Origin: an uncultured Candidatus Saccharibacteria bacterium | Lineage (GTDB): Bacteria > Patescibacteriota > Saccharimonadia > Saccharimonadales > JALRHH01 | DNA: 64,000 bases | Assembly (NCBI GenBank): GCA_964639295.1 | Contig: CAZXDT010000003.1 | Coordinates: forward strand, 65,304 to 129,303 | Reading direction: 5' to 3' | Shown here: one piece after another, positions 1 to 55,321 of the stretch | Layout of the letters: each line of letters opens with the position of its first letter | Position numbering within the stretch: the first letter of the stretch is position 1 | Notes under the pieces: model-generated | Databases searched by the model: none | Seen by the model: the letters and a program-made list of their open reading frames with translations, nothing else | What the model was told of the DNA's origin: nothing | Program-made: the position numbers and the translations under genes

Positions 1-2222
1 CAAACGGCCAAGTTACTACCTGTTCAATTACTAACAGTGATATTGCGCCAATCTTGACAGTGCTTAAGCAGGTACTGAACCCATACGGCACAGCACTCAG
101 CCCTTCTGCATTCCCATTGTTTGTGGATGGCACATCAGTGACTAGTGGTGTGGCAAGAAGCCAGTTTAATGCAGGCACACACACTATTACCGAGATACAG
201 CAATTTGGCTACACATTCACTGGCGTAAGTGGTGACTGTACACTTGATCAAAGTGGCATCACTGTTCTACTCGTAATTGGCGAAAGCAAAACCTGTACAT
301 TAACCAACACAGCTATTCAGCCTAAACTTACTGTTATCAAGCATGTTATCAATGACAATAGCGGCACCAGCTCAGCTGATGACTTCACTATGACTGTCAC
401 TGGCAACTCACAGTTTGTACCTAACTTCCCTGGCGACGAGAACGGCACCGAGGTTGGGCTAAACGAAGGTAACTACAGCGCTAACGAACTTGCGGATGCA
501 GGATACACTAAGTCATTCAGTGGTGACTGTAGCGGTACTATCGCAGTCGGCGAAACCAAGACATGTACTATCACAAATGACGATGTTGCTCACCCAGCAA
601 TCAACATCGTCAAGAATGGACCTGCGACTGCTCACGAAGGTGACCAAGTTGTATACACATTTGATGTTACCAATACTGGTGATACTGCAACACTTGCAAA
701 CGTAACCGTCAATGACACCATTGGCAACCAGGTTACCAACGCAGTTTACGCAAGCGGTGACACAAACAACGACGGTCTATTACAAAAGACCGAGACTTGG
801 CACTTCACCCTTAACTACGTAATCCCAGAAGACACCAACTCAGTCGTAAACACTGGCCAGGCTTGTGGATTTGACCCAGCTCAGACCAAGGTTTGCGATA
901 CTGACACTCACACACTAGACGTGCTTCACCCAGAGCTCCAAGTCATTAAGACTGCAAGTACTGAGGAAGCAAACCCAGGCGACACCGTAACCTACACATT
1001 CACTGTTACAAACTTGGGTGACACTCCTTTGGATATAACTAAGGTTCATGACTCTATTGCACTTGATGGTGCAGTGCTTCAACCTGGCGGCGATACTAAT
1101 GGCAATGAACTGCTAGACACTTCTGAAACCTGGGTATACACGATTGACTACACAATCCCCGCAAACCAGGATAGTAATGTCGTCAATGTCGTAACTGTCT
1201 GTGGCGAAGATGCACTTGAAGGTGAAGACTGCGACACAGACACGCACACACTTGTAGTACTCGCTAAAGTAATCGTTACTAAGTACAACGACGTAAATCG
1301 TAACGGTGTATTTGACAACGGTGACGAATTGCTACCAGACTGGGAGTTCACTCTCGGCTGTAACAACCCAGAATTTGTAGAACGGCTTGTACAAATCCTC
1401 GACAACTCTTGCCAAGACAAGACACAGTCAACTGGCCAAGACGGCACAACAACATTTACAAGCGTAAAGCCAAACAACAACTACACGTTGAACGAAACAA
1501 TCCCGGCAGACAGTAACTGGCACCTTGGCAGCATCGTCTGTAGCGGTGACCAAGCTGGACTTGATGGTGATACATACTACATCAACGACGTAACTCCTGG
1601 CGGAACAATTAACTGTTCTGTAGGCAACTACCGTGATGCAGTCCTAGAACTCACTAAGGCAAACGACCAGCCAAACCCAGTAAATACTGGTACAACAGTG
1701 ACCTACACATTGACCGTAACAGTTCCTGAAGACAGTGGTGCAGTATTTGGTGCAGAAGTCACCGACCTTACACCAGAAGGCTTCACCTACATACCAGGAA
1801 GCTGGACTGCAGAATCTAACATGGGGCCAATCGAAGTAGCAGAACCTCAGTATGGTTCACCAGGTATATGGAAGCTTGGCTACCTTGTACCAGGTTCAAT
1901 TGTCACACTTACTTACAAGGCACTCATCGGTACAACCGTCAGTAACGGTACCTACCCTGACCTCGCCTTTGCAAGAGGTTGTGATGTTGATTGTTCGAAT
2001 GTTGATGCAACCGCAGTCTTTGCCAACGTATCAACGGGAGCAAGCACTCCATTCGTTGGAACAAACGTAAGTATCGTCCGACCTGAAGTCCTCGCTGCAA
2101 ACATTACCCGTTACGTAAATACTGGTGCATCTGATGTATGGATAAATACTCTCGCAGCTATAACACTCGCTGGAGCGGCCTTCATTACACTGGTTCGCCG
2201 TGAGAAGAAAGGAGTAAAGTAA
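1..2222 (+). CDS. Large cell-surface repeat protein, 5' end cut by the window edge, with a C-terminal sortase-type sorting signal
   Basis: The frame stays open to nt 1. Upstream residues GQVTTCSITNSDIAPILTV repeat the G-x-(S/T)KTC-x-(I/L)TN module seen again downstream. It has DUF11-like repeats (GD.V.YTF.VTN.GDT) and an SdrD/Cna-B-like segment (VTKYNDVNRNGVFDNGDE). The C-terminus is YVNTGAS plus a hydrophobic helix plus RREKKGVK. Confidence 0.85.
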   Translation, partial: NGQVTTCSITNSDIAPILTVLKQVLNPYGTALSPSAFPLFVDGTSVTSGVARSQFNAGTHTITEIQQFGYTFTGVSGDCTLDQSGITVLLVIGESKTCTLTNTAIQPKLTVIKHVINDNSGTSSADDFTMTVTGNSQFVPNFPGDENGTEVGLNEGNYSANELADAGYTKSFSGDCSGTIAVGETKTCTITNDDVAHPAINIVKNGPATAHEGDQVVYTFDVTNTGDTATLANVTVNDTIGNQVTNAVYASGDTNNDGLLQKTETWHFTLNYVIPEDTNSVVNTGQACGFDPAQTKVCDTDTHTLDVLHPELQVIKTASTEEANPGDTVTYTFTVTNLGDTPLDITKVHDSIALDGAVLQPGGDTNGNELLDTSETWVYTIDYTIPANQDSNVVNVVTVCGEDALEGEDCDTDTHTLVVLAKVIVTKYNDVNRNGVFDNGDELLPDWEFTLGCNNPEFVERLVQILDNSCQDKTQSTGQDGTTTFTSVKPNNNYTLNETIPADSNWHLGSIVCSGDQAGLDGDTYYINDVTPGGTINCSVGNYRDAVLELTKANDQPNPVNTGTTVTYTLTVTVPEDSGAVFGAEVTDLTPEGFTYIPGSWTAESNMGPIEVAEPQYGSPGIWKLGYLVPGSIVTLTYKALIGTTVSNGTYPDLAFARGCDVDCSNVDATAVFANVSTGASTPFVGTNVSIVRPEVLAANITRYVNTGASDVWINTLAAITLAGAAFITLVRREKKGVK

Positions 2223-2938
2223 TGAAAAAATTACTCATCGCACTCGCCCTAACAATTACTCTTAGCCTTGGATTCTCAGCAAAAGCGCTAGCCTTTGATA
2301 ACTGTCTTCACCCGGAAGTTAGGTGTTGGGAAACTCAGATCATGACACCTGCTGCCTCAAGTTCGGATCACACATTAAATGTTGCATATAGTGTACTCTC
2401 AACTGTTAGTAGTGATATCTATGATGTCAGCCTCTACCAAAACGAAGTACTAGTTGATAGTCAGCATGTTGACCACGGCAAGGGTGGAAACTCTGGAGTA
2501 TTCAACATTGCGCTTCCCGCAAATGGTACATACAAGTACCAGATCTCTGCAAACAACACGTCAGCTGGCGAAGTAAAGAACACTGACACCAAGACCGTCA
2601 AGATTGTAGATGGTCCAACACCAACTGTTACAACTGTGAATGTAAACACAGCTGCAGCTAACGGTGGTGGTACGGCTGCTGGCACTGGCGCAAATGCTGG
2701 TACAGGAGCAGGAAACGCTGCTGGCGCAGTTAACGGCGCAGCTACAACCAACGGCCAAGTTACTCCAAATGCTGCTAACACTACCAACAACCAGAATTCT
2801 GGTAGCGCACTAGGTGCAAGTACAACCAAAGCCAAGGCTTCAAGCAACGGCAAGTGGTACGCCCTCGGCGCAGCAATCCTTGTGGTCGCTGGAGGCGCAT
2901 ACTACTGGTTCATGATGCGACCTAAACTAAACGACTAG
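2222..2938 (+). CDS. Secreted low-complexity (Ala/Gly/Asn/Thr-rich) protein with a C-terminal membrane anchor
   Basis: It has an N-terminal signal peptide (MKKLLIALALTITLSLGFSAKALA) and a C-terminal TM helix (WYALGAAILVVAGGAYYWFMM). The start overlaps the upstream stop (TAATG). Confidence 0.7.
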   Translation: MKKLLIALALTITLSLGFSAKALAFDNCLHPEVRCWETQIMTPAASSSDHTLNVAYSVLSTVSSDIYDVSLYQNEVLVDSQHVDHGKGGNSGVFNIALPANGTYKYQISANNTSAGEVKNTDTKTVKIVDGPTPTVTTVNVNTAAANGGGTAAGTGANAGTGAGNAAGAVNGAATTNGQVTPNAANTTNNQNSGSALGASTTKAKASSNGKWYALGAAILVVAGGAYYWFMMRPKLND

Positions 2939-2954
2939 AAATAAATACAAAATA

Positions 2955-2987
2955 AAAAGTCCCTCTTACGCGAGGGGCTTTTTATTT
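2955..2987. terminator. Bidirectional rho-independent terminator
   Basis: The ccctc/gaggg stem (2961-2965 and 2972-2976) is flanked by an A-run and a T-run. It lies between the convergent + strand CDS and the minus-strand tRNA operon. Confidence 0.6.
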
Positions 2988-3064
2988 GGGGCGAACTATG
3001 GGAATTGAACCCACGACCTCCGGAACCACAACCCGGCGCTCTAACCAACTGAGCTAAGCTCGCC
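2987..3064 (-). tRNA. tRNA-His (anticodon GTG) with encoded G-1 and CCA
   Basis: Hand-folded cloverleaf: acceptor GCGAGCT/AGTTCGC, extra 5' G opposite C73, anticodon loop TTGTGGT, T-loop GGTTCAATTCC. Confidence 0.85.
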
Positions 3065-3111
3065 ATAATATTTAACTGTCTGATACTAACAGATTACCCC
3101 TGTTATATCAA

Positions 3112-3188
3112 TGGTGCCCCGGGCTGGACTCGAACCAGCGACCTTGAGCTTAGAAGTCTCCTGCTCTATCCAGCTGAGCTACCAGGGC
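3112..3188 (-). tRNA. tRNA-Arg (anticodon TCT)
   Basis: Acceptor GCCCTGG/CCGGGGC, D-arm GCTCAGCTGGATAGAGC, anticodon loop CTTCTAA, T-arm GGTTCGAGTCC, encoded CCA. The anticodon stem has mismatched terminal pairs. Confidence 0.8.
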
Positions 3189-3225
3189 ATACACCACTAC
3201 ATTGTAAAGTAAGAATGAACTAATC

Positions 3226-3300
3226 TGGTGCGGGTGCGCAGAATCGAACTGCGATCTCAAGTTTGGAAAACTCACATACTAACCGTTGTACTACACCCGC
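3226..3300 (-). tRNA. tRNA-Gly (anticodon TCC)
   Basis: Acceptor GCGGGTG/CACCCGC, anticodon loop TTTCCAA, T-arm AGTTCGATTCT, encoded CCA. Confidence 0.85.
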
Positions 3301-3312
3301 ATGAACCTCGAT

Positions 3313-3321
3313 ATTATACCA
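3313..3321 (-). promoter_or_regulatory. Extended -10 (TGGTATAAT) for the Gly-Arg-His tRNA operon
   Basis: The minus strand reads TGGTATAAT about 12 nt upstream of the tRNA-Gly 5' end. Confidence 0.45.
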
Positions 3322-3330
3322 GATTACATC

Positions 3331-3339
3331 TGTTATAAT
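3331..3339 (+). promoter_or_regulatory. Extended -10 (TGTTATAAT) for the P-type ATPase gene
   Basis: TGTTATAAT lies 34 nt upstream of the ATG at 3374 and is divergent from the tRNA promoter. Confidence 0.4.
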
Positions 3340-3373
3340 AACCGTAAAGAAAGCTAAAATATATGGGGGCTGC

Positions 3374-5215
3374 ATGCTAAAGCGTGTTACGCATTTTTTG
3401 AGAGAGTATCGTCAACTAAGTTTTGCACTGATTGTTGCAGTAATTGGTCTTATTTTAGACCTTGCAAACTACAATGGTGCGGCGCATTGGGTGCTTGGCA
3501 CGGGTGCACTTGCTCTAACTATCCCCCTTGTTAGGGATATGGTTAAAACGCTCCAGGCTGGCCATTTTGGTATCGATGTATTGGCCGCAACTGCAATAAT
3601 CACCTCAGTTGTCTTGCATCAATACTGGGCAGCCATCGTCATTGTTCTGATGCTCACTGGTGGTGAATCATTAGAAGAGTACGCCGAGAAGCGCGCGAAG
3701 AATGAGCTAACTTCCCTACTTGCCCGCCGTCCTAAAAAAGCGCACTTACTAAAAGGACGCAAATCAACTGATATCAAAGCTTCCGAGATAAAGACCGGCG
3801 ATAAGCTAGTGATCCTGCCAGGCGAAGTCGTACCAGCGGACGCGGTTATCCTAGAAGGCAGCACGAGTCTTGATGAAGCCAGTATTACTGGTGAGAGCGT
3901 TCCAGTAGCCAAATCCGTAGGGGACGACATTGTCAGTGGTTCCGTAAACCTTGACGGACAACTAACCGTCCGTGCCCTGCACAGAGCAGCAGACAGCCAG
4001 TACGAACAGATCATTAAGCTAGTCCGGGGCGCTACTTCAAGCCAAGCGCCCTTTGTACGTCTTGCAGACCGCTACAGTGTGCCCTTTACTGCTATAGCAT
4101 TCTTTGTCGCTGGAGCGGCTTGGTTTGCTACAGGCGACGCTATACGCTTCCTGGAAGTACTTGTTGTAGCTACACCATGCCCACTACTACTTGGTGCACC
4201 TATTGCTATCATCTCCGGCATGAGCCGGGCTGCAAAGCACGGTATCATCATTAAGACTGGTTCGGCCCTGGAGCAACTTGCAGCAGTACAGACTATTGCC
4301 TTTGATAAGACTGGTACCCTTACTGCCGGACGCCCTGTTGTCGACACAGTAACCACCTATAACCAACACTCTGAATTAGCAGTTCTGCAAGCAGCAGCAG
4401 CGCTTGAGCAAGGTTCAACTCACGTGTTAGCCACAGCGATTATCAATAAGGCAATTGCCAAAAAGATTAAGTTCCAAAGTGCTAAACAAGTCAAAGAAGT
4501 CTCCGGGCACGGCCTATCTGGACGTTTGTCAGGTAAAGATTTGTTAGTTGGACACCTTAGCTTGATCAAGCAAGCTGATATTGAACTGCCTAAGGAGCTT
4601 AAAGCAAAGAAATTCAGTCAAACAGTAACCTACGTTGCGATTGCAGGCGAACTAGCTGGAACAATTACCTTTAAGGACGAAATCCGCCCAGAGGCCACCA
4701 AAATGCTTTCTCGCCTGCGTAAGGCCGGTATCCGTAAGTTTGCGCTTATTACCGGTGATAACGAAGCTTCGGCCGTTAGCGTAGCCCAGAAGCTTAATAT
4801 AGTCGATGTCTACCCTGATTGCCTGCCAGCAGAGAAAATGCAGGCTATCGAAGAAATGGATGCTCCTGTAGCCTTTGTCGGCGATGGTGTTAACGATGCA
4901 CCTGTGCTGACTGTGGCTGATGTTGGTATCGCACTAGGTGCACGTGGCTCTACTGCAGCTAGCGAAACCGCCAATGTCGTCATAATGCAGGATGATATAT
5001 CCAAGGTTGCGAGTGGTGTAGAGATTGCTAAACGTACGTTATTCATTGCTAAGCAAAGTGTATTGGTAGGTATATTCCTCAGTCTCGGCCTAATGGCTGT
5101 ATTTGCAACCGGTAAATTCACCGCCCTCCAAGGTGCTATCGTTCAAGAATTTGTGGACGTTGCAGTCATCATCCTTGCCCTACGCGCTCATGGTGCTGTC
5201 AGTAAGAAACTATAA
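3374..5215 (+). CDS. Heavy-metal-translocating P1B-type ATPase (TPCP transmembrane motif, no N-terminal metal-binding domain)
   Basis: Contains the DKTGTLT phosphorylation motif, the GDGVNDAP hinge, the TGES actuator motif and ATPCPLL in the metal-binding TM helix. Confidence 0.9.
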   Translation: MLKRVTHFLREYRQLSFALIVAVIGLILDLANYNGAAHWVLGTGALALTIPLVRDMVKTLQAGHFGIDVLAATAIITSVVLHQYWAAIVIVLMLTGGESLEEYAEKRAKNELTSLLARRPKKAHLLKGRKSTDIKASEIKTGDKLVILPGEVVPADAVILEGSTSLDEASITGESVPVAKSVGDDIVSGSVNLDGQLTVRALHRAADSQYEQIIKLVRGATSSQAPFVRLADRYSVPFTAIAFFVAGAAWFATGDAIRFLEVLVVATPCPLLLGAPIAIISGMSRAAKHGIIIKTGSALEQLAAVQTIAFDKTGTLTAGRPVVDTVTTYNQHSELAVLQAAAALEQGSTHVLATAIINKAIAKKIKFQSAKQVKEVSGHGLSGRLSGKDLLVGHLSLIKQADIELPKELKAKKFSQTVTYVAIAGELAGTITFKDEIRPEATKMLSRLRKAGIRKFALITGDNEASAVSVAQKLNIVDVYPDCLPAEKMQAIEEMDAPVAFVGDGVNDAPVLTVADVGIALGARGSTAASETANVVIMQDDISKVASGVEIAKRTLFIAKQSVLVGIFLSLGLMAVFATGKFTALQGAIVQEFVDVAVIILALRAHGAVSKKL

Positions 5216-6130: not shown

Positions 6131-6163
6131 TAAAAAATCCATCTTGCGATGGATCTTTTATTT
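6131..6163. terminator. Bidirectional rho-independent terminator
   Basis: The atccatc-ttgc-gatggat hairpin is flanked by A6 and a T-rich run, immediately 3' of tRNA-Pro. Confidence 0.6.
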
Positions 6164-6238
6164 GGTCGGGGTGAAAGGACTCAAACCTTCGACCTCTCGG
6201 TCCCAAACCGAGCGCGCTATCAACTGCGCCACACCCCG
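6163..6238 (-). tRNA. tRNA-Pro (anticodon TGG)
   Basis: Acceptor CGGGGTG/CACCCCG, anticodon stem-loop CTCGG-TTTGGGA-CCGAG, encoded CCA. Confidence 0.85.
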
Positions 6239-7430: not shown

Positions 7431-8945
7431 CTACTTAGCGAATTCTATGGCGCGGGTTTCGCGGATGACGTTGACCTTGATAGTGCCTGGGTACTGCATG
7501 GTGCTTTCGATCTTAGTCGCAATGTCGCGAGCTAGTTTGATCGCAGTTAGGTCATCAACTGCACCTGGCTTAACAAATACACGAATTTCACGTCCGGCGC
7601 TAATAGCATATGATTTCTCGATACCGCTGAAGCCGTTAGCGACGTTTTCAAGGTCCTTCATACGCTCTGCAAAGTTCTCTGCAGAAACATTACGTGCACC
7701 AGGGCGAGCTGCACTAATGGCATCAACTACGCGGATGATAATCGCTTCCGTGCTGGTAGCCTCTACATCGTCGTGGTGTTGCTCTGCAGCCAAAGCCACT
7801 TCTTCTGGAGCGCCGTACTTACGGAGCATTTCACCGCTAATATGGTGATGCTTGCCTTCTACCTTGTGAGTTAGCGCCTTGCCTAGGTCGTGAACCAAAG
7901 CAGCGTATTTGGCAGTCTTAACATTGGCACCAACTTCTTCGGCAATGATACCAGCGATGTGAGCCATTTCAGTACTGTGCTTGAGCACATTCTGGCCGTA
8001 ACTTGTACGGAACTTAAGCTCACCAAGCAGGTTCAAGATTTCCTTAGGAACACCGATGATGCCAACTTCACGGGCAGCATCTTCACCGGCACGAGTGACT
8101 TCCTTGAGCACGTTCTTCTGGGCCTTTTCAACTACTTCTTCAATACGACCAGGGTGCACACGACCATCCTTGAGTAGCAACTCAAGTGCCTGTCGTGCAA
8201 CTTCGCGGCGTACCGGGTCAAACGAACTTAAGATAATCATGCCTGGAGTGTCATCAACCATAATGTCCACGCCAGTTGCACGCTGCAAGGCTTGAATATT
8301 ACGGCCTTCTTTACCAATGATACGACCCTTCATTTCTTCGTCCTGGAGCTTCACGGCAGTCACTGTTCGTTCTGCAGTTACTTCGCTAGCCATACGTTCC
8401 ATTGCTTCAACAATTATGGCGCCGGCTTTTTCTTCTGCGAGTTCTTTTGCTTCGGCCTGAAGCTTGGTGATCAAACCTGTCAGATCGTTACGGATATCAC
8501 GTTCGGTCATTTGCATAAGCTTATCGGCGGCATCTGTCTTGCTCAATTTGGCAATCTTTTCTAGCTTATCCTGTTGCTTGATACGGATATCACGGATTTC
8601 GTTTTTAAGGCCTTCTACTTCGTCTTCTGAGTTACGTAGGTTTGTTGCACGCTTATCAATCTCGTCGAGTTTCTTATCAAGGTTAACTTCACGGTCAAGT
8701 AACCGCTGCTCAACATCCTTGAGTTCTTTACGGCGTGTTGTTTCTAGCTTACGAGCCTCTTCATTAGCCCTGTTTACTTCTTCACGAGCCTCTTCGATGA
8801 GCTTGCTTGCCTCTTTCTTGGCCTTGCTAAGTTCTTTGTTGGCCTGGTTTTGTGCGTTGCCGAGCTGGCGCTTTGCCACGACGGTACTACCACCAAAACC
8901 AACACCAATACCAGCCAATGCCAGTACTATGGTAATTGGGTCCAT
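7431..8945 (-). CDS. rny: Ribonuclease Y
   Basis: N-terminal TM helix, long coiled-coil, KH domain (GRIIGKEGRNI) and HD domain (HDLGKA...). Confidence 0.95.
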   Translation of the reverse strand: MDPITIVLALAGIGVGFGGSTVVAKRQLGNAQNQANKELSKAKKEASKLIEEAREEVNRANEEARKLETTRRKELKDVEQRLLDREVNLDKKLDEIDKRATNLRNSEDEVEGLKNEIRDIRIKQQDKLEKIAKLSKTDAADKLMQMTERDIRNDLTGLITKLQAEAKELAEEKAGAIIVEAMERMASEVTAERTVTAVKLQDEEMKGRIIGKEGRNIQALQRATGVDIMVDDTPGMIILSSFDPVRREVARQALELLLKDGRVHPGRIEEVVEKAQKNVLKEVTRAGEDAAREVGIIGVPKEILNLLGELKFRTSYGQNVLKHSTEMAHIAGIIAEEVGANVKTAKYAALVHDLGKALTHKVEGKHHHISGEMLRKYGAPEEVALAAEQHHDDVEATSTEAIIIRVVDAISAARPGARNVSAENFAERMKDLENVANGFSGIEKSYAISAGREIRVFVKPGAVDDLTAIKLARDIATKIESTMQYPGTIKVNVIRETRAIEFAK

Positions 8946-9118
8946 ATTACACCTCTCTATCGGTACTAGAGCTCCGCTACAAGAACAATCACTATCACTT
9001 CATTAGTTCAAACGGACTCTAGAAAATCAAAGTTATTAGAAATTGGACAGACATAAGTAAATCCTGTTGTTTACTATACGGCTGGAAATAACGAAATGCA
9101 ATGAATTACTACGCATTC

Positions 9119-10102
9119 TTATCGCTGAACTGCGAACACGATCACACGCTGAATATTCTGATTATTGCCACCATCATAGTTCGCAGAACTCGTAACAAGA
9201 TTCAGGCCATTTTTACTGGAATCTATGGAGTCAAGCGCAATACTCATATCAACCTGATCGCCCGTAAAAGTCTGCACTTTGACTACACTGTACGTAATAA
9301 TTGTCTTGTCGCCCCGCTCTATGACTATCTCGTCATTTGGCAGTAGCGACTGTAGATCATGGAATACGCCATTCTTGGTACTCCCAGAAATATGACCGTT
9401 AATAAGCACTGCACCCGGTTGGCCTGGTCTACCACTATCATCAAACCAGCCGACGTCATGAATATTACTTGGGGAGATTGGCTCACCAACTAGTGAAGCA
9501 CCAACTCGTTTTACCCGAGCCTCAACATCCAGTTTACTAATGCGTAAAATTCGCGGTGCATCTGCAGCTGCTTGGAAGTTAGTCAGATCAGTCGGAGTCG
9601 GGATGGACTCATCAAGTGTACTCAAATTTTTTGTTGAGGCAGTAGCGGCCGTATTACCGTGGCGAGTGTCATGCAGATAAGGTATAGATATGGACCTGAT
9701 GTTTGGGAAGAAATCCCAGAAGGACCACAGTATCACGAGTAATGCGCCAATAATCATGAACATGCCAATAAATCCGGCAAATCGACGCTTTCGCATACTA
9801 CGAGCTTCTTTACGATATTCAACCGCTCGTTCAACCATATGACGCTTCAATACATGCGAACGATTTTGGCGCGGTAATGCGGGTTTGGTGGTTGATGGCT
9901 TACGAGAGGTGTGTTGCGGGGCAAAGTCGAGATGTTTCTGGTTACTCGGCTGAGTTAGTGGAGTACGCTGTTTTAATTCTGGCTGAGTGGTACTTCTTGG
10001 AACTGTCCTGGGGCTCACATCAACATCAGGGCGCAGACCAGTACGACCAGTGGCGTAACGCCGTCCTGGTTCACTACTCAGCGGGTGCTTTGGATCGTTC
10101 AT
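9119..10102 (-). CDS. Sortase-fold protein with Ser replacing the catalytic Cys (LVTSS instead of LVTCG)
   Basis: Disordered N-terminus, a TM helix and a sortase domain with VLINGH. It aligns residue for residue with the paralog at 10460-11476. The nucleophile codon is AGT at 9188-9190. Confidence 0.8.
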   Translation of the reverse strand: MNDPKHPLSSEPGRRYATGRTGLRPDVDVSPRTVPRSTTQPELKQRTPLTQPSNQKHLDFAPQHTSRKPSTTKPALPRQNRSHVLKRHMVERAVEYRKEARSMRKRRFAGFIGMFMIIGALLVILWSFWDFFPNIRSISIPYLHDTRHGNTAATASTKNLSTLDESIPTPTDLTNFQAAADAPRILRISKLDVEARVKRVGASLVGEPISPSNIHDVGWFDDSGRPGQPGAVLINGHISGSTKNGVFHDLQSLLPNDEIVIERGDKTIITYSVVKVQTFTGDQVDMSIALDSIDSSKNGLNLVTSSANYDGGNNQNIQRVIVFAVQR

Positions 10103-10202
10103 GTTTATGTTGCCACCAGTTACTTCTCTAACAATTCGTTACAGAATATACAACATTTAGTATACAAGCCCACTCCGTTTTAGCAACCTGCTTATACTTG
10201 TA

Positions 10203-10460
10203 CTACAGGGATATTCTTGAACGTTGCTTGGCCATCATGTCTTTACGTAGTATGACTGATGGGGTTGGCTGCTTGGGTGGTATAAATATATCCCGTTCAT
10301 CCAGATCAAGCACTTCCCTCGACACACCTCCAATGGTTCTTGTTACATCGATGATTGCCTCTACTTCTTCTGGGCTCGCCTGGTGGTAAACAGAACCCCG
10401 GCGTATAAAATCAACCTGACCTCTATGTTTATAACCATCTTTTGGCTGCGTGCCTCCCAT
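10203..10460 (-). CDS. Hypothetical 85-aa protein between the two sortase genes
   Basis: The ORF start overlaps the stop of the upstream sortase by 1 nt. No recognisable motif. Confidence 0.5.
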   Translation of the reverse strand: MGGTQPKDGYKHRGQVDFIRRGSVYHQASPEEVEAIIDVTRTIGGVSREVLDLDERDIFIPPKQPTPSVILRKDMMAKQRSRISL

Positions 10461-11476
10461 CAGTCTACCTGCACTGCAAAGACTTCATCACGAGATTCGT
10501 AGTGCCCCGTTTTTGTATCATACTTTCCGCCACACGTTACAAGATTGAGCCCCTGCTTACCAGGCTTAGCTGACTTCATCAGGGTAGCCATATTCAGACT
10601 ATCTGCAGATTCCTGAGCCGTCTTTTCAACCCTGTACTTCACAACTTTTCCATCACCACGCTCAACTTCAATGATGTCACCAGACACAAGTTTCTTGAGA
10701 TTTACGAATATACCGGGCTTAGTTGGGCCATGTACATGGCCATCGATCAACACTGCACCAGCATCTATACCAGGCTTAGCGCTCGCGTTGTACCAACCAG
10801 CATCATAGATACTACTCGGGGCGAGCAGTTGATTATCCCGGCTGACACCGAGTGGCTTTACGCGTGCTGCAACGTCAATTTTTTTAATAGTGATCTTGCG
10901 AGGTAAATCAGGGGCCACCTTGTAACTACTAACTGCGTTGGGGTGTATATCTGATTCGTCTGGCTTCTCGTTACCACTTGTTCCATCGTCACTAGTATTT
11001 TTCTTGCCGCTACTCATTGCCTGAACTTGCTGCGTAACATTCCTGTTCGTAAGCAGTGAGTTCACACTTACCCCTAGCCCAAGTATAAACACAACCATTG
11101 CCATGCCAGCAAGTGCACTACTTTTACTAAACAAACGTTGCTTCATAGATTTCTTGGCCGCTGAGTCCTGGGTAGGCTCAGACGAAAGAGCTATTTGTTT
11201 GTGCTGTGGTCTTTGAACGGCCGGCACTAGGGGTTTGCGGCGAACTGGAATAAAATCTATCCCTACTGCGGTGCTCTGAGGCTTATGCGCCTTATTAACT
11301 AGATTGTTTGGGCTGGGTGATGATAGAGGTACTACTTGGGCACCTGTAGGAGGCTTAACTGCAAGAGAAATTACTCCATCTGTGGTACGCCTAGAATAGA
11401 CAGAACTGCGGCGTTTATACCGCAGCGCTTGGCCATTTTGAGAATGGGTAAACCCACTTAATGGTCTGTCTGTCAT
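10460..11476 (-). CDS. Membrane-anchored sortase (class E/F-like transpeptidase)
   Basis: TM helix, VLIDGHVHG catalytic His, LNLVTCGG catalytic Cys and a conserved C-terminal Arg (SRDEVFAV). Confidence 0.85.
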   Translation of the reverse strand: MTDRPLSGFTHSQNGQALRYKRRSSVYSRRTTDGVISLAVKPPTGAQVVPLSSPSPNNLVNKAHKPQSTAVGIDFIPVRRKPLVPAVQRPQHKQIALSSEPTQDSAAKKSMKQRLFSKSSALAGMAMVVFILGLGVSVNSLLTNRNVTQQVQAMSSGKKNTSDDGTSGNEKPDESDIHPNAVSSYKVAPDLPRKITIKKIDVAARVKPLGVSRDNQLLAPSSIYDAGWYNASAKPGIDAGAVLIDGHVHGPTKPGIFVNLKKLVSGDIIEVERGDGKVVKYRVEKTAQESADSLNMATLMKSAKPGKQGLNLVTCGGKYDTKTGHYESRDEVFAVQVD

Positions 11477-11516: not shown

Positions 11517-13106
11517 TTAACGACGCTTTGCGGGTGCTTTTTGCAAACGCTTACGTGCAATCAAGATTGCACCTGCTGCGATTGTTGCTGTAATCAGTGT
11601 GATCATAGGGTTAGCAGCAAGAAGCTTGAAGCCAGTGTTTGGGGCCTTTGGAAGTAATGATGCGTCGATTGATTCTACCGTCAGCACGACATCATTGCCA
11701 TCACCGCCTTTGTAGGTAACTGAGTAAGTAACTCCTTGATTTGTATAGTTTCCACCTTCAGCAATTCCGGTAAACGTACCAGTAACAGCGTCTGCAACAT
11801 CGTTATCAATAATTGTGTAGCTCTGTCCAACAGTAGGAACAAATCCATTGTAAAGCGTTGATTCGAGCGTAGAACCACTCAGATCAACCGTACCTGTCAC
11901 CTTCAGTTGATCGTAGCCAGTACAGGCTGTTGTACCACCGATTTCAGCTTGGTAAGTTCCAAACAGAGATAGATTGCCACTATTTATACAGCCGGGGCTG
12001 TGTCCAGGTGCAACTATAGCACCCTGCATAATATTCAACACGGAAGCGGTACCCGTGCCTTTTAATATTCCACCGCTAAGGACTTCCACATTCTGACGAG
12101 ATCCATCAAGAATAGTTGTTTCTTTATTAACGACTGTCAGATCTGTGGTAGGCTGACTGTCACTAACGGTAGTAGTTTTTGTTGGATTTTCAAGTCTTCC
12201 TGTCTCCTGAGTTGTTGAAACCTTCGAGCTCGGGTTTACATTTAAAACTCCGTCAGCAACGGGGTTGTTGCCTATGTCACCGGTACCAGTAAGGGCGCCA
12301 GTAACGTTAACTGTAACTGGAGAGTACGCGGTAAATTTTGAGTTATCAAGAACATTTATTGCGCCAGTAACATTCCACGTTACTGGAGTAGTAGCACAGC
12401 TAAACCCTCCAGGCACACACCCAAAGTTAACATCAGGCCTACTGGTGCCGGTACCACCACCAAGTGTCATCGGGCTTGCGAACGCATTCGTTGCTGTACT
12501 TGTTAGTAGGTTAAGGTATGCGCCCTTCTCTACTACGATACGGTTCCCGATAGTAAGCGCAGTTGGATCAATATTGGCACTAGTACCGGACTCAAGAGTA
12601 AGTGAAAGAGTAATACTGCCTGTGGTATCTGCCATGTAAAATCCAATGTCACCACCTACAACTGACTGCCTGAGCTTGACGTCACCTTCTCCGGTTAAGT
12701 TTGCCACTGCCATTCTAACTTCAGTAGTACCAGTGTTATAACTATTGACTACAGCGTTGTCCTTGAGTGTTAGGGTATCTACGGTGTACGTCGTAGTATC
12801 TGTTGGGGCACCAGGAACTATCGTTACTCCTGCAAAAGCTACGCCGGTCAGATCATTCACAAGTGCCTTGGTTCCACCACCAGTTAACCTCTCAAAACGG
12901 ATCGTATCTCCGTCTTGAGGCTTTACGTTACCATCAACGCTACAACTCCAGTTGCCGTCGTTATCAAAGTTATTATTAACTGCGCCTGTCCAGGTACACG
13001 TATCAACAGCCGCATGCGCAACTGGGATAAACGCGATATTAAGTAACGCCGATACTGATAGTACAGATGCAGTCGCTAAAGAACTCAACCTCTTAAGTCT
13101 TTTCAT
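11517..13106 (-). CDS. Cell-wall-anchored beta-helix adhesin-like protein (autotransporter-associated beta-strand-repeat type)
   Basis: Signal peptide ending in VAHA. The C-terminal module YDQLKVTGTVDLSGSTL...GQSYTIIDND...VTYKGGDGNDVVLTV is followed by KAPNTGF, a hydrophobic helix and RKRLQKAPAKRR. Confidence 0.8.
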   Translation of the reverse strand: MKRLKRLSSLATASVLSVSALLNIAFIPVAHAAVDTCTWTGAVNNNFDNDGNWSCSVDGNVKPQDGDTIRFERLTGGGTKALVNDLTGVAFAGVTIVPGAPTDTTTYTVDTLTLKDNAVVNSYNTGTTEVRMAVANLTGEGDVKLRQSVVGGDIGFYMADTTGSITLSLTLESGTSANIDPTALTIGNRIVVEKGAYLNLLTSTATNAFASPMTLGGGTGTSRPDVNFGCVPGGFSCATTPVTWNVTGAINVLDNSKFTAYSPVTVNVTGALTGTGDIGNNPVADGVLNVNPSSKVSTTQETGRLENPTKTTTVSDSQPTTDLTVVNKETTILDGSRQNVEVLSGGILKGTGTASVLNIMQGAIVAPGHSPGCINSGNLSLFGTYQAEIGGTTACTGYDQLKVTGTVDLSGSTLESTLYNGFVPTVGQSYTIIDNDVADAVTGTFTGIAEGGNYTNQGVTYSVTYKGGDGNDVVLTVESIDASLLPKAPNTGFKLLAANPMITLITATIAAGAILIARKRLQKAPAKRR

Positions 13107-13222
13107 TTTATTGTTTCCTGTTTTGTTGTTATAAATTACTACACTTTGTAATATAGTCTCCCCTGTTATATTGTCAAGCCTTTTATGCTTAAATGATGAC
13201 TCGTTTACAACGTGTGTGAGGT

Positions 13223-13615
13223 CTATTTCTTCTGTGGGGTGATGTGTACGGGGGCGCCATACTCCGGCAAAGCTACTTTTGTAGTCTTACCATCAAGCAA
13301 GTCATAAATTCCGTTATCAATCCAATTGTCACCTGTTGTTGCAGCAATACCGATTCCGTTGCTACTTGCTAATGCGTTAGCTACGGAGAACCCAATTCGG
13401 AGTCCCGTGAAACTACCCGGACCCTGATAAGCTATGATCCCCTGTACGTCAGCCCAAGTCTTATCTTGTGCTTCTAATAATGCAGCGATTTTGTAATGAA
13501 TTGTTTCCGCTAATTGCCTATGCGCCTGCCACGTCTCATAAGTAATCCGTGTTTGATCGTCGAATAACCCAATTTCTGATTCTGGCTTGTCTGTTCTGAG
13601 CGTCAGAATTAGCAT
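13223..13615 (-). CDS. tsaB: tRNA t6A biosynthesis protein TsaB, short form (130 aa)
   Basis: Contains the QGPGSFTGLRIGFSVANALA motif. It overlaps tsaE by 7 nt. Confidence 0.75.
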   Translation of the reverse strand: MLILTLRTDKPESEIGLFDDQTRITYETWQAHRQLAETIHYKIAALLEAQDKTWADVQGIIAYQGPGSFTGLRIGFSVANALASSNGIGIAATTGDNWIDNGIYDLLDGKTTKVALPEYGAPVHITPQKK

Positions 13616-34517: not shown

Positions 34518-34594
34518 GGGTCCATAGCTCAGCCGGTTAGAGCACCTGCCTTTTAAGCAGGGTGTCGTGGGTTCGAGTCCCACTGGACCCTCCA
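34518..34594 (+). tRNA. tRNA-Lys (anticodon TTT)
   Basis: Acceptor GGGTCCA/TGGACCC, anticodon stem-loop CCTGC-CTTTTAA-GCAGG, T-arm GGTTCGAGTCC, encoded CCA. Confidence 0.88.
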
Positions 34595-55244: not shown

Positions 55245-55321
55245 GGCGGCGTAGCTCAGTTGGTTAGAGCGCAGGACTCATAAGCCTGAGGTCACAGGTT
55301 CGAACCCCGTCGCCGCTACCA
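55245..55321 (+). tRNA. tRNA with anticodon CAT (elongator Met by similarity; Ile2 not excluded)
   Basis: Acceptor GGCGGCG/CGCCGCT (G1-U72), anticodon loop CTCATAA, T-arm GGTCACAGGTTCGAACCCCGT closely resembling E. coli elongator tRNA-Met, encoded CCA. Confidence 0.8.

Follow-up and report, generated by a model that had tools for sequence, protein, structure and literature searches.

A conserved sortase homologue without the catalytic cysteine at the tsaB-rny locus of Candidatus Saccharibacteria

Results

A sortase gene with serine at the position of the catalytic cysteine

Sortases are textbook cysteine transpeptidases. Here we analyse a 64,000-nucleotide stretch of DNA (the window) from an uncultured Candidatus Saccharibacteria bacterium (GenBank assembly GCA_964639295.1, contig CAZXDT010000003.1, positions 65,304 to 129,303 of the forward strand), and more specifically a minus-strand gene at 9119-10102 whose product is a sortase homologue lacking the cysteine nucleophile. 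A first-pass annotation made from the sequence alone had described this gene as half of a sortase gene pair in which one paralogue carries Ser instead of the catalytic Cys. Read in the direction of transcription on the minus strand, from 13106 to 9119, the genes encode a secreted protein of 529 amino acids (aa), a 338-aa sortase, an 85-aa open reading frame (ORF) and the 327-aa sortase homologue. The features of the locus, with the evidence for each, are the following.

7431-8945, minus strand: rny (RNase Y), downstream edge of the conserved locus (synteny)
9119-10102, minus strand: Cys-less sortase homologue, a candidate 'pseudo-sortase', 327 aa (Pfam Sortase, E = 1.2e-14; AlphaFold2 model; Foldseek; orthologues)
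9188-9190, read 9190-9188, minus strand: AGT codon of Ser305, at the sortase nucleophile Cys position (sequence, profile alignment)
10203-10460, minus strand: small ORF, 85 aa, no transmembrane (TM) segment; its start codon ATG shares one base with the stop codon TGA of the Cys sortase gene (TGATG)
10460-11476, minus strand: class-F-like sortase with intact triad, 338 aa (Pfam Sortase, E = 2.5e-15; H247, C315, R329)
11517-13106, minus strand: predicted surface adhesin, 529 aa (signal peptide, repeat-rich passenger, sorting signal)
13150-13177, minus strand: promoter-like site TTGACA-16-TATATT, 11/12 matches, 5' of the adhesin gene (consensus match only)
13223-13615, minus strand: tsaB, upstream edge of the conserved locus (synteny)

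The two sortase homologues are 32% identical (E = 5e-42) and align without a gap across the catalytic motifs; both match the Pfam Sortase family, in agreement with the shared architecture and the alignment through the catalytic region reported by the annotation. The 9119-10102 protein contains GLNLVTSSANYD and presents its motifs in the order LINGH ... GLNLVTSSANYD ... QRVIVFAV, and the 10460-11476 protein contains GLNLVTCGGKYD in the order LIDGH ... GLNLVTCGGKYD ... SRDEVFAV. Cys315 of the latter is encoded by TGT at 10534-10532. The codon of Ser305, AGT, differs from TGT by a single base, as had been noted. The catalytic His and the C-terminal Arg are retained in both proteins, as H237 (CAT, 9394-9392, within LINGH) and R319 in the Cys-less protein and as H247 (within LIDGH) and R329 in the Cys sortase. 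Also as described, the 85-aa ORF lies between the two sortase genes, and the set follows an adhesin gene bearing a sorting signal (APNTG).

By sequence and by predicted fold the Cys-less protein belongs to the sortase superfamily (PF04203, peptidase family C60). Its match to PF04203 scores 54.5 bits against a gathering cut-off of 26.6 and aligns residues 186-325 with profile positions 1-123 of 125; the Cys sortase scores 56.8 bits against the same cut-off. In the AlphaFold model, the predicted local distance difference test (pLDDT) score exceeds 90 over most of residues 181-327, which adopt the sortase beta-barrel, and the top 50 Foldseek matches in the PDB are all sortases (best E = 2e-9, probability 1.00). 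The protein consists of a cytoplasmic tail (residues 1-107), a TM segment (approximately 108-126), a variable linker (129-180) and the sortase domain (181-327), which carries H237, T304, S305 and R319. The hydrophobicity scan places the membrane anchor at 108-126, directly after the basic stretch RKEARSMRKRR, and AlphaFold2 predicts a helix at 83-127. With H237 and R319 present and Ser305 at the nucleophile position, the protein lacks the His-Cys-Arg triad.

The placement of Ser305 at the nucleophile position is based mainly on the ungapped motif LNL[VIM]T[C/S], which the protein has in common with Cys-bearing homologues. An hhalign comparison of the orthologue profile with Staphylococcus aureus SrtA agrees with this placement and puts H237, S305 and R319 on His120, Cys184 and Arg197, at a weak overall score (probability 3%, E = 0.014) and with an SrtA query sequence that may be inexact. 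Sequence searches of the PDB with the single proteins gave no match at E ≤ 1 for the Cys sortase and a best E of 0.04 for the Cys-less protein; the orthologue profile gave one short match (E = 6e-4), and no PDB sequence match reached the Cys motif.

The N-terminus had been called disordered. The low pLDDT of the cytoplasmic tail is in line with that description, but two segments of the tail, 11-24 and 71-95, are conserved to the same degree as the sortase domain in the orthologue alignment (entropy 1.1 versus 1.28). They contain the motifs EPGRRYA (11-17) and KPALPRxxRSxVLKRHMVERA (73-93), with P74, A75, R78, S82, V84, L85 and R87 invariant. The second motif also occurs in an intact-triad relative, at locus L008 (SRSGVLKRQAV).

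Orthologues lack the cysteine and the gene is under purifying selection

Of the 79 proteins found in a homologue search, the 47 best comprise the database copy of the query and 46 orthologues (33-100% identity). None of the 46 has Cys at the nucleophile site, and the remoter matches of this search all read T-C. The site is occupied by Ser in 23 orthologues, Thr in 21, Ala in one and Asn in one, and its conservation is average, ranking 79th among 147 domain positions. The catalytic His is replaced by Asn or Phe in 4/46 and the Arg by Gln in 8/46. All three residues, His237, Ser305 and Arg319, are kept in the window protein and in all 22 orthologues that are at least 50% identical to it. No cysteine is found anywhere in 37 of the 46 proteins; the other nine have one each, situated in the TM helix (eight) or at domain position 324 (one).

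The identical 327-aa protein is present in two further assemblies, SRR8931241 and SRR8931239, which were assembled independently. At the DNA level, the codon at the Ser305 site is AGT in the window and at two other loci (L010 and L011), ACC (Thr) at L005 and GCA (Ala) at L003. ORFs are intact in 46/46 orthologues, and no frameshift or stop was found in any locus examined. For the closest orthologue with DNA (L011, 73% identical), the proportion of nonsynonymous differences (pN) is 0.152 and that of synonymous differences (pS) 0.737; dS (synonymous divergence) is saturated, so that the ratio of nonsynonymous to synonymous divergence (dN/dS) is at most about 0.06. Constraint in this comparison is greatest in the juxtamembrane and TM segment (pN 0.064) and in the sortase domain (pN 0.088). 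The Cys-less gene is therefore under strong purifying selection: it is a real, conserved and locus-specific sortase lineage without the nucleophile.

The Cys-less gene resides between tsaB and rny

We surveyed 71 fetched loci by BLAST against the window proteins and then read the triad residues of each sortase homologue. The scan of genome contigs yielded only two loci, both from Candidatus Saccharibacteria; the synteny set was obtained from a metagenome scan together with look-ups of exact proteins. In the contigs bearing an orthologue, the gene order is type IV pilus (T4P) genes (T2SSF, T2SSE), recA, recX, a small PRC-like gene, tsaE, tsaB, the Cys-less sortase and rny. The window carries this order reversed, and synteny with tsaB is found at L003-L011, L014, L016, L017, L054 and L072.

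Of the fetched loci, 12 contain Cys-less homologues, among them two copies of the window's own locus, and in 11/11 readable flanks the gene lies directly upstream of rny; in most loci of the orthologous group it comes immediately after tsaB. Sortase homologues encoded at other places keep both His and Cys in 53/53 instances (52 H-C-R, one H-C-K). Remoter genes at the rny-adjacent place read S-D-R (L006), Y-H-R (L007), T-N-R (L054) and Q-C-R (L009), and H-C-R is kept there at L008, L016, L017 and L040. At L016 (3606-4958) and L017 (4464-5816), the frame upstream of rny, with intact H-C-R, is unusually long (approximately 450 codons between stops), and approximately 1.7 kb that match no window protein lie between it and tsaB. 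The rny-adjacent gene of L009 (2499-3440) has Gln for the catalytic His with the Cys kept, and looks like an intermediate state of decay as judged from its residues.

Both genes of the annotated pair are present; the pair itself is not what is conserved. The full set of adhesin, Cys sortase, (small ORF), Cys-less sortase and rny recurs at L010, at L012 and in one further contig, the proteins of L010 being 46%, 60% and 51% identical to those of the window. In L011, the closest relative, nothing but an 88-aa small ORF and the Cys-less gene separates tsaB from rny, and several other loci are likewise without adhesin and Cys sortase. At L012, the Cys-less gene is 65% identical to the window's, while the active sortase upstream (388-1377) is only 39% identical to that at 10460-11476. 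Since it is absent at some loci and contains a different sortase at another, the upstream cassette of adhesin and active sortase is variable, and it appears exchangeable. The unit of interest is the rny-adjacent Cys-less lineage, often accompanied by the small ORF, and not the sortase pair.

Comparison of two further loci relates the nucleophile to the adjoining adhesin. At L008, the intact-triad rny-adjacent sortase follows a 585-aa adhesin homologue (2527-4284) ending TPDTGF. At L072, a Ser-type sortase 61% identical to that of L008 follows only a 59-aa ORF (3113-3292), in which the adhesin signal peptide is joined to the C-terminal TM segment and tail and the sorting motif is gone; residues 21-53 of this ORF align to adhesin residues 553-585 (E = 1e-5). 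A 33-aa ORF at the matching spot of L007 (Y-H-R) resembles an adhesin signal peptide, a match that is not significant by itself. The nucleophile can thus be lost along with the dedicated substrate while the sortase-like gene stays intact.

Catalytic positions lose conservation while the fold is kept

Among 1.84 billion cluster representatives, a profile search found 1048 matches below 1e-30, the best 150 of which we aligned with the window's two proteins. In this set, 95 sequences have Cys at the nucleophile position (94 with full H-C-R) and 56 do not. In the Cys-less sequences the site is filled by S, T, A, N, D, Y, H, F, W, M or V; the His, too, is often replaced. Conservation of at least 80% in both groups is seen at 29 domain positions, including R319 (100% in the Cys-bearing and 91% in the Cys-less group), T304 (100% and 80%), G299-L300-N301 and D216/G218/W219. 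Eight positions lose conservation in the Cys-less group, most of them within the His and Cys motifs: C305 falls from 100% to 21% (Ser being the commonest single residue), G307 from 100% to 55% and V238 from 97% to 48%, and D235 changes from 82% Asp to 54% Asn; the remaining ones are V193, G201, Y220 (91% to 41%) and K225. Such a pattern is what would be expected if the chemistry had been abandoned and the fold, and probably the peptide groove, had been kept.

Intact and degenerate members of the family can be closely related. P0136 (H-C-R) and P0128 (H-S-R) are 61% identical, and P0150 (H-C-R) is 60% identical both to P0120 (Y-H-R) and to P0105 (Y-S-R), whereas both groups are only approximately 33% identical to the clade of the window protein. 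On the basis of these identities, the Cys has apparently been lost several times independently at the rny-adjacent place.

A small ORF upstream of the Cys-less gene

The 85-aa ORF belongs to a family of 85-91 aa proteins, with members in the window and at L005 (6622-6882), L010 (about 9013-9230), L011 (465-731), L012 (1347-1658, identical with P0336) and L013. In all six, which represent the closer relatives, it lies directly upstream of the Cys-less gene; it is absent from L003, L004, L006-L009 and L014. The family has an invariant PPKQPxP and an N-terminal [YF]x[RH]RxSxY. A Pfam search with the small ORF gave no match and a homologue search only one relative. Its N-terminal motif matches the LRYxRRSSVYxRR N-terminus of the Cys-sortase orthologues (hhalign E = 1.3e-4), a resemblance that would fit a sortase fragment consisting of the tail alone or a mimic of the tail. 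We also considered that it might be a copy of the Cys-less protein's own tail and rejected this origin, as the matches were not significant (hhalign E = 0.38 against the Cys-less orthologue alignment and 0.26 against the L008 sortase).

Neighbouring genes and other features of the window

The Cys sortase has a TM helix at approximately 120-138 and, in the alignment of its orthologues, the LRYxRRSSVYxRR N-terminus is invariant. The product of the adhesin gene next to it ends with APNTG (11645-11631) followed by a hydrophobic stretch and a basic tail, and adhesin homologues with APNTG or TPDTG signals lie at the matching place in L010 and L008. The adhesin is likely the substrate of the adjoining active sortase. 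The promoter-like site at 13150-13177 may be the promoter of the operon, judging from its consensus match; in a promoter and terminator scan, the number of sites was no higher than in shuffled sequence. A further gene of interest lies at the start of the window:

54-2222, plus strand: second predicted sortase substrate, a large repeat-rich surface protein (ends YVNTG, hydrophobic stretch, RREKKGVK)

The window holds exactly two sortase homologues and two candidate ligands, the APNTG adhesin and this YVNTG protein. The ORF at 54-2222 may extend past the window start. It is directly followed on the plus strand by a gene at 2222-2938 for a 238-aa protein rich in Ala, Gly, Asn and Thr, with a signal peptide and a C-terminal TM segment. 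The window also contains six transfer RNA (tRNA) genes, at 2987-3300 (minus strand), 6163-6238 (minus), 34518-34594 (plus) and 55245-55321 (plus), three of which form a His-Arg-Gly cluster just 5' of a P-type ATPase gene. A search of the whole window against Rfam at gathering score matched no family other than tRNA.

Discussion

A maintained sortase fold that has probably given up catalysis

We propose that the 9119-10102 gene encodes a selectively maintained, catalytically degenerate sortase-fold protein with a non-catalytic binding or scaffold role, in short a pseudo-sortase, and we regard this as the most probable reading of the comparative data, albeit with considerable room for others. 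Homology to sortases is combined with loss of a catalytic residue, the gene is under purifying selection, and the catalytic positions are unconstrained across the lineage, with 11 different residues at the nucleophile site. A pseudo-enzyme was among the possibilities raised by the first-pass annotation, and it is the one that gained most from the survey: relatives with Ala, Asn, Asp, Tyr or His at the site, together with the losses of His and Arg, fit it best.

In this proposal, the ancestral arrangement would have been a surface-adhesin gene followed by its dedicated class-F-like sortase at the rny-adjacent place. The rny-adjacent sortase would then have lost its Cys nucleophile in many lineages, and often its His as well, while retaining the fold, the single-pass membrane topology, the cytoplasmic tail and, from the active site, the Arg and the Thr just ahead of the nucleophile position. 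The resulting protein would no longer form an acyl-enzyme and would serve as a membrane-anchored, outward-facing module that binds either sorting signals of the xP(N/D)TG type or the acceptor in the cell wall. Such binding would scaffold, hold or regulate the anchoring of surface proteins by the active sortase or sortases of the cell. In the present genome, the candidate active partner would be the enzyme encoded two genes upstream, beside the APNTG adhesin. The lack of activity, the ligand binding and the partner are what we infer from comparing sequences; binding of sorting signals in particular is suggested by the retained Arg, Thr and fold.

Several observations weigh against this proposal or limit it. 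The window protein and its 22 closest relatives keep a full His-Ser-Arg, so that hydroxyl catalysis is conceivable in this subclade. Only small residues (Ser, Thr and Ala) occupy the site within the Saccharibacteria clade, which is compatible with a packing constraint and also with a need for a hydroxyl group. In many genomes neither an adhesin nor an active sortase is encoded near the gene, and partnership with an adjoining active sortase is thus not required. In addition, the neighbour-joining tree underlying the independent losses is coarse and prone to long-branch effects.

Alternative explanations

The most direct alternative to a pseudo-sortase is an enzyme with a changed nucleophile, either a transpeptidase or a hydrolase, that uses Ser305 activated by His237, or Thr in the corresponding orthologues. 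A Ser-nucleophile transpeptidase had been suggested in the annotation, and the residues it needs are indeed complete in the window protein and in all orthologues of 50% identity or more; a hydroxyl residue is nearly always present at the site among the 46 orthologues, and the groove residues Thr304 and Arg319 are retained. We nevertheless think it unlikely. The site, whose conservation is only average, is taken by Ala (L003/P0024, P0094, P0097), Asn, Asp, Tyr, His, Phe, Trp, Met or Val in orthologues at the same locus; the His is replaced in many of them and the Arg is Gln in eight of the 46; and G307, D235 and V238, beside the catalytic centre, lose conservation along with the Cys. An internal Thr would moreover be an unusual nucleophile. 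The annotation had also raised a sequencing or assembly variant, and AGT is indeed one base from TGT. Such an error, or a strain-level difference from a normal Cys sortase, is ruled out for practical purposes by the identical protein in two independent assemblies, the AGT codon at L010 and L011, and the absence of Cys from every orthologue. Scarcely more probable is a functionless relic, that is, a sortase decaying after loss of its dedicated substrate and not yet pseudogenised. The coincidence of Cys loss with loss of the adjoining adhesin in L072 relative to L008 is what one would expect of a relic, as is the free variation of the catalytic residues, but ORFs are still full-length in at least 46 orthologues, the most divergent of them 33% identical, and in remoter clades, pN is 0.15 against a pS of 0.74, 29 domain positions are at least 80% conserved, and frameshifts and stops are absent from the examined loci.

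Another possibility shares with the pseudo-sortase proposal a non-catalytic ectodomain and assigns it a different task. Here the protein would be a sortase-derived transmembrane sensor or adaptor, whose ectodomain binds an outside ligand (a sorting signal, a peptidoglycan stem or a host-surface peptide) and whose tail signals to a cytoplasmic partner, possibly the 85-aa protein. Speaking for this idea are tail segments 11-24 and 71-95, which match the ectodomain in conservation and have invariant residues; the small cytoplasmic ORF directly upstream in the window, L005 and L010-L013; and the N-terminal motif that the small ORF and the tails of the active sortases have in common. On the other hand, the juxtamembrane motif is also found in the intact-triad protein of L008 and therefore predates the loss of catalysis, so that it may simply signal localisation or topology; L003, L004, L006-L009 and L014 lack the small ORF; and Pfam and NCBIfam scans recognised no signalling domain. 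We consider the sensor or adaptor a doubtful candidate. Similarly speculative is a lineage-wide version, in which the rny-adjacent sortases would form a family of Saccharibacteria receptors: the dead groove would read sorting signals or wall peptides, possibly those of the host wall, and the tail together with the small, co-encoded, tail-like protein would couple it to the inside of the cell.

Relation to known sortases and pseudoenzymes

For both window proteins, the best NCBIfam model is that of the class F sortases (NF033748), and both score below its cut-off of 166 bits (86.5 bits for the Cys-less protein, 106.7 for the Cys paralogue). NCBI names related Saccharibacteria proteins 'class F sortase'. 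The prototype of this class is SrtF of Propionibacterium/Cutibacterium acnes (Di Girolamo et al., 2019, as cited in PMC8225981). The Cys-less protein resembles class F in its N-terminal membrane anchor, its sortase beta-barrel, and its His and Arg in the expected motifs. It differs in having LNLVTS in place of TLxTC and a tail of approximately 100 aa with lineage-specific motifs, and its likely ligands would end in xP(N/D)TG or VNTG rather than in the canonical LPXTG. Without the triad and below the cut-off, it is not to be filed as a class F sortase enzyme.

The closest solved folds are Thermobifida fusca SrtE (9m2g/9j0t), Streptomyces coelicolor SrtE1 (5cuw) and Clostridium perfringens SrtD (4d70), with Foldseek E-values of 2e-9 to 4e-9 and a probability of 1.00. 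Class E and D structures are also the sole sequence-level matches in the PDB. Identity between the Cys-less protein and these solved sortases is only 22-26%. The class E and D sortases are Cys enzymes; 9j0t and 9m2g are C222A laboratory constructs of SrtE, which are crystallisable without the Cys. In SrtA, C184S has served as a Cys-less background for spin-label measurements (PMC5578623). Engineered Cys-less SrtA (C184S/C184A) is consistent with folding without the Cys; it is artificial, unlike the natural lineage described here.

According to a review, all sortases contain His-Cys-Arg (PMC8225981), and our literature searches on pseudo-, inactive or Cys-less sortases returned nothing relevant and no natural conserved Cys-less lineage. 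In other protein families, the inactive rhomboids (iRhoms) and the degenerate LytM factors EnvC and NlpD are dead paralogues under selection, which regulate active relatives in membranes or cell envelopes, keep their fold and substrate surface and often stand beside active members. Their folds and families are unrelated to sortases, and the comparison with the Cys-less protein would be one of functional analogy only.

The published transposon insertion sequencing (Tn-seq) data provide no phenotype for the Cys-less family, because in the cultivated Southlakia epibionticum ML1, the only Saccharibacterium with such a set, tsaE, tsaB and rny are adjacent (within SEML1_0711-0714) with no sortase between tsaB and rny (PMC10633639 supplements). 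In the same organism, disruption of SEML1_0711, a 200-aa 'class E sortase' beyond rny, confers a growth advantage, and SEML1_0327, a 448-aa sortase, is essential or gives a growth defect (PMC10633639).

Significance

The way of life of Saccharibacteria, which are ultrasmall epibionts, relies on surface proteins. Their genomes are strongly reduced, and a gene that persists in them is therefore likely to matter. The automated label 'sortase (surface protein transpeptidase)' probably overstates the anchoring capacity of the genomes that carry the Cys-less gene. The natural Ser/Cys pair beside a substrate gene, together with the intact and degenerate pairs of 60% identity elsewhere, makes the proposal directly testable. 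A natural pseudo-sortase family would surprise specialists, its function being suggested here by sequence and predicted structure. Should the rny-adjacent proteins turn out to be a sortase-derived receptor family, they would constitute a new functional class for the sortase fold. More generally, a natural, conserved and widespread lineage without the Cys, often without the His, and under strong selection implies a catalysis-independent job for the sortase fold.

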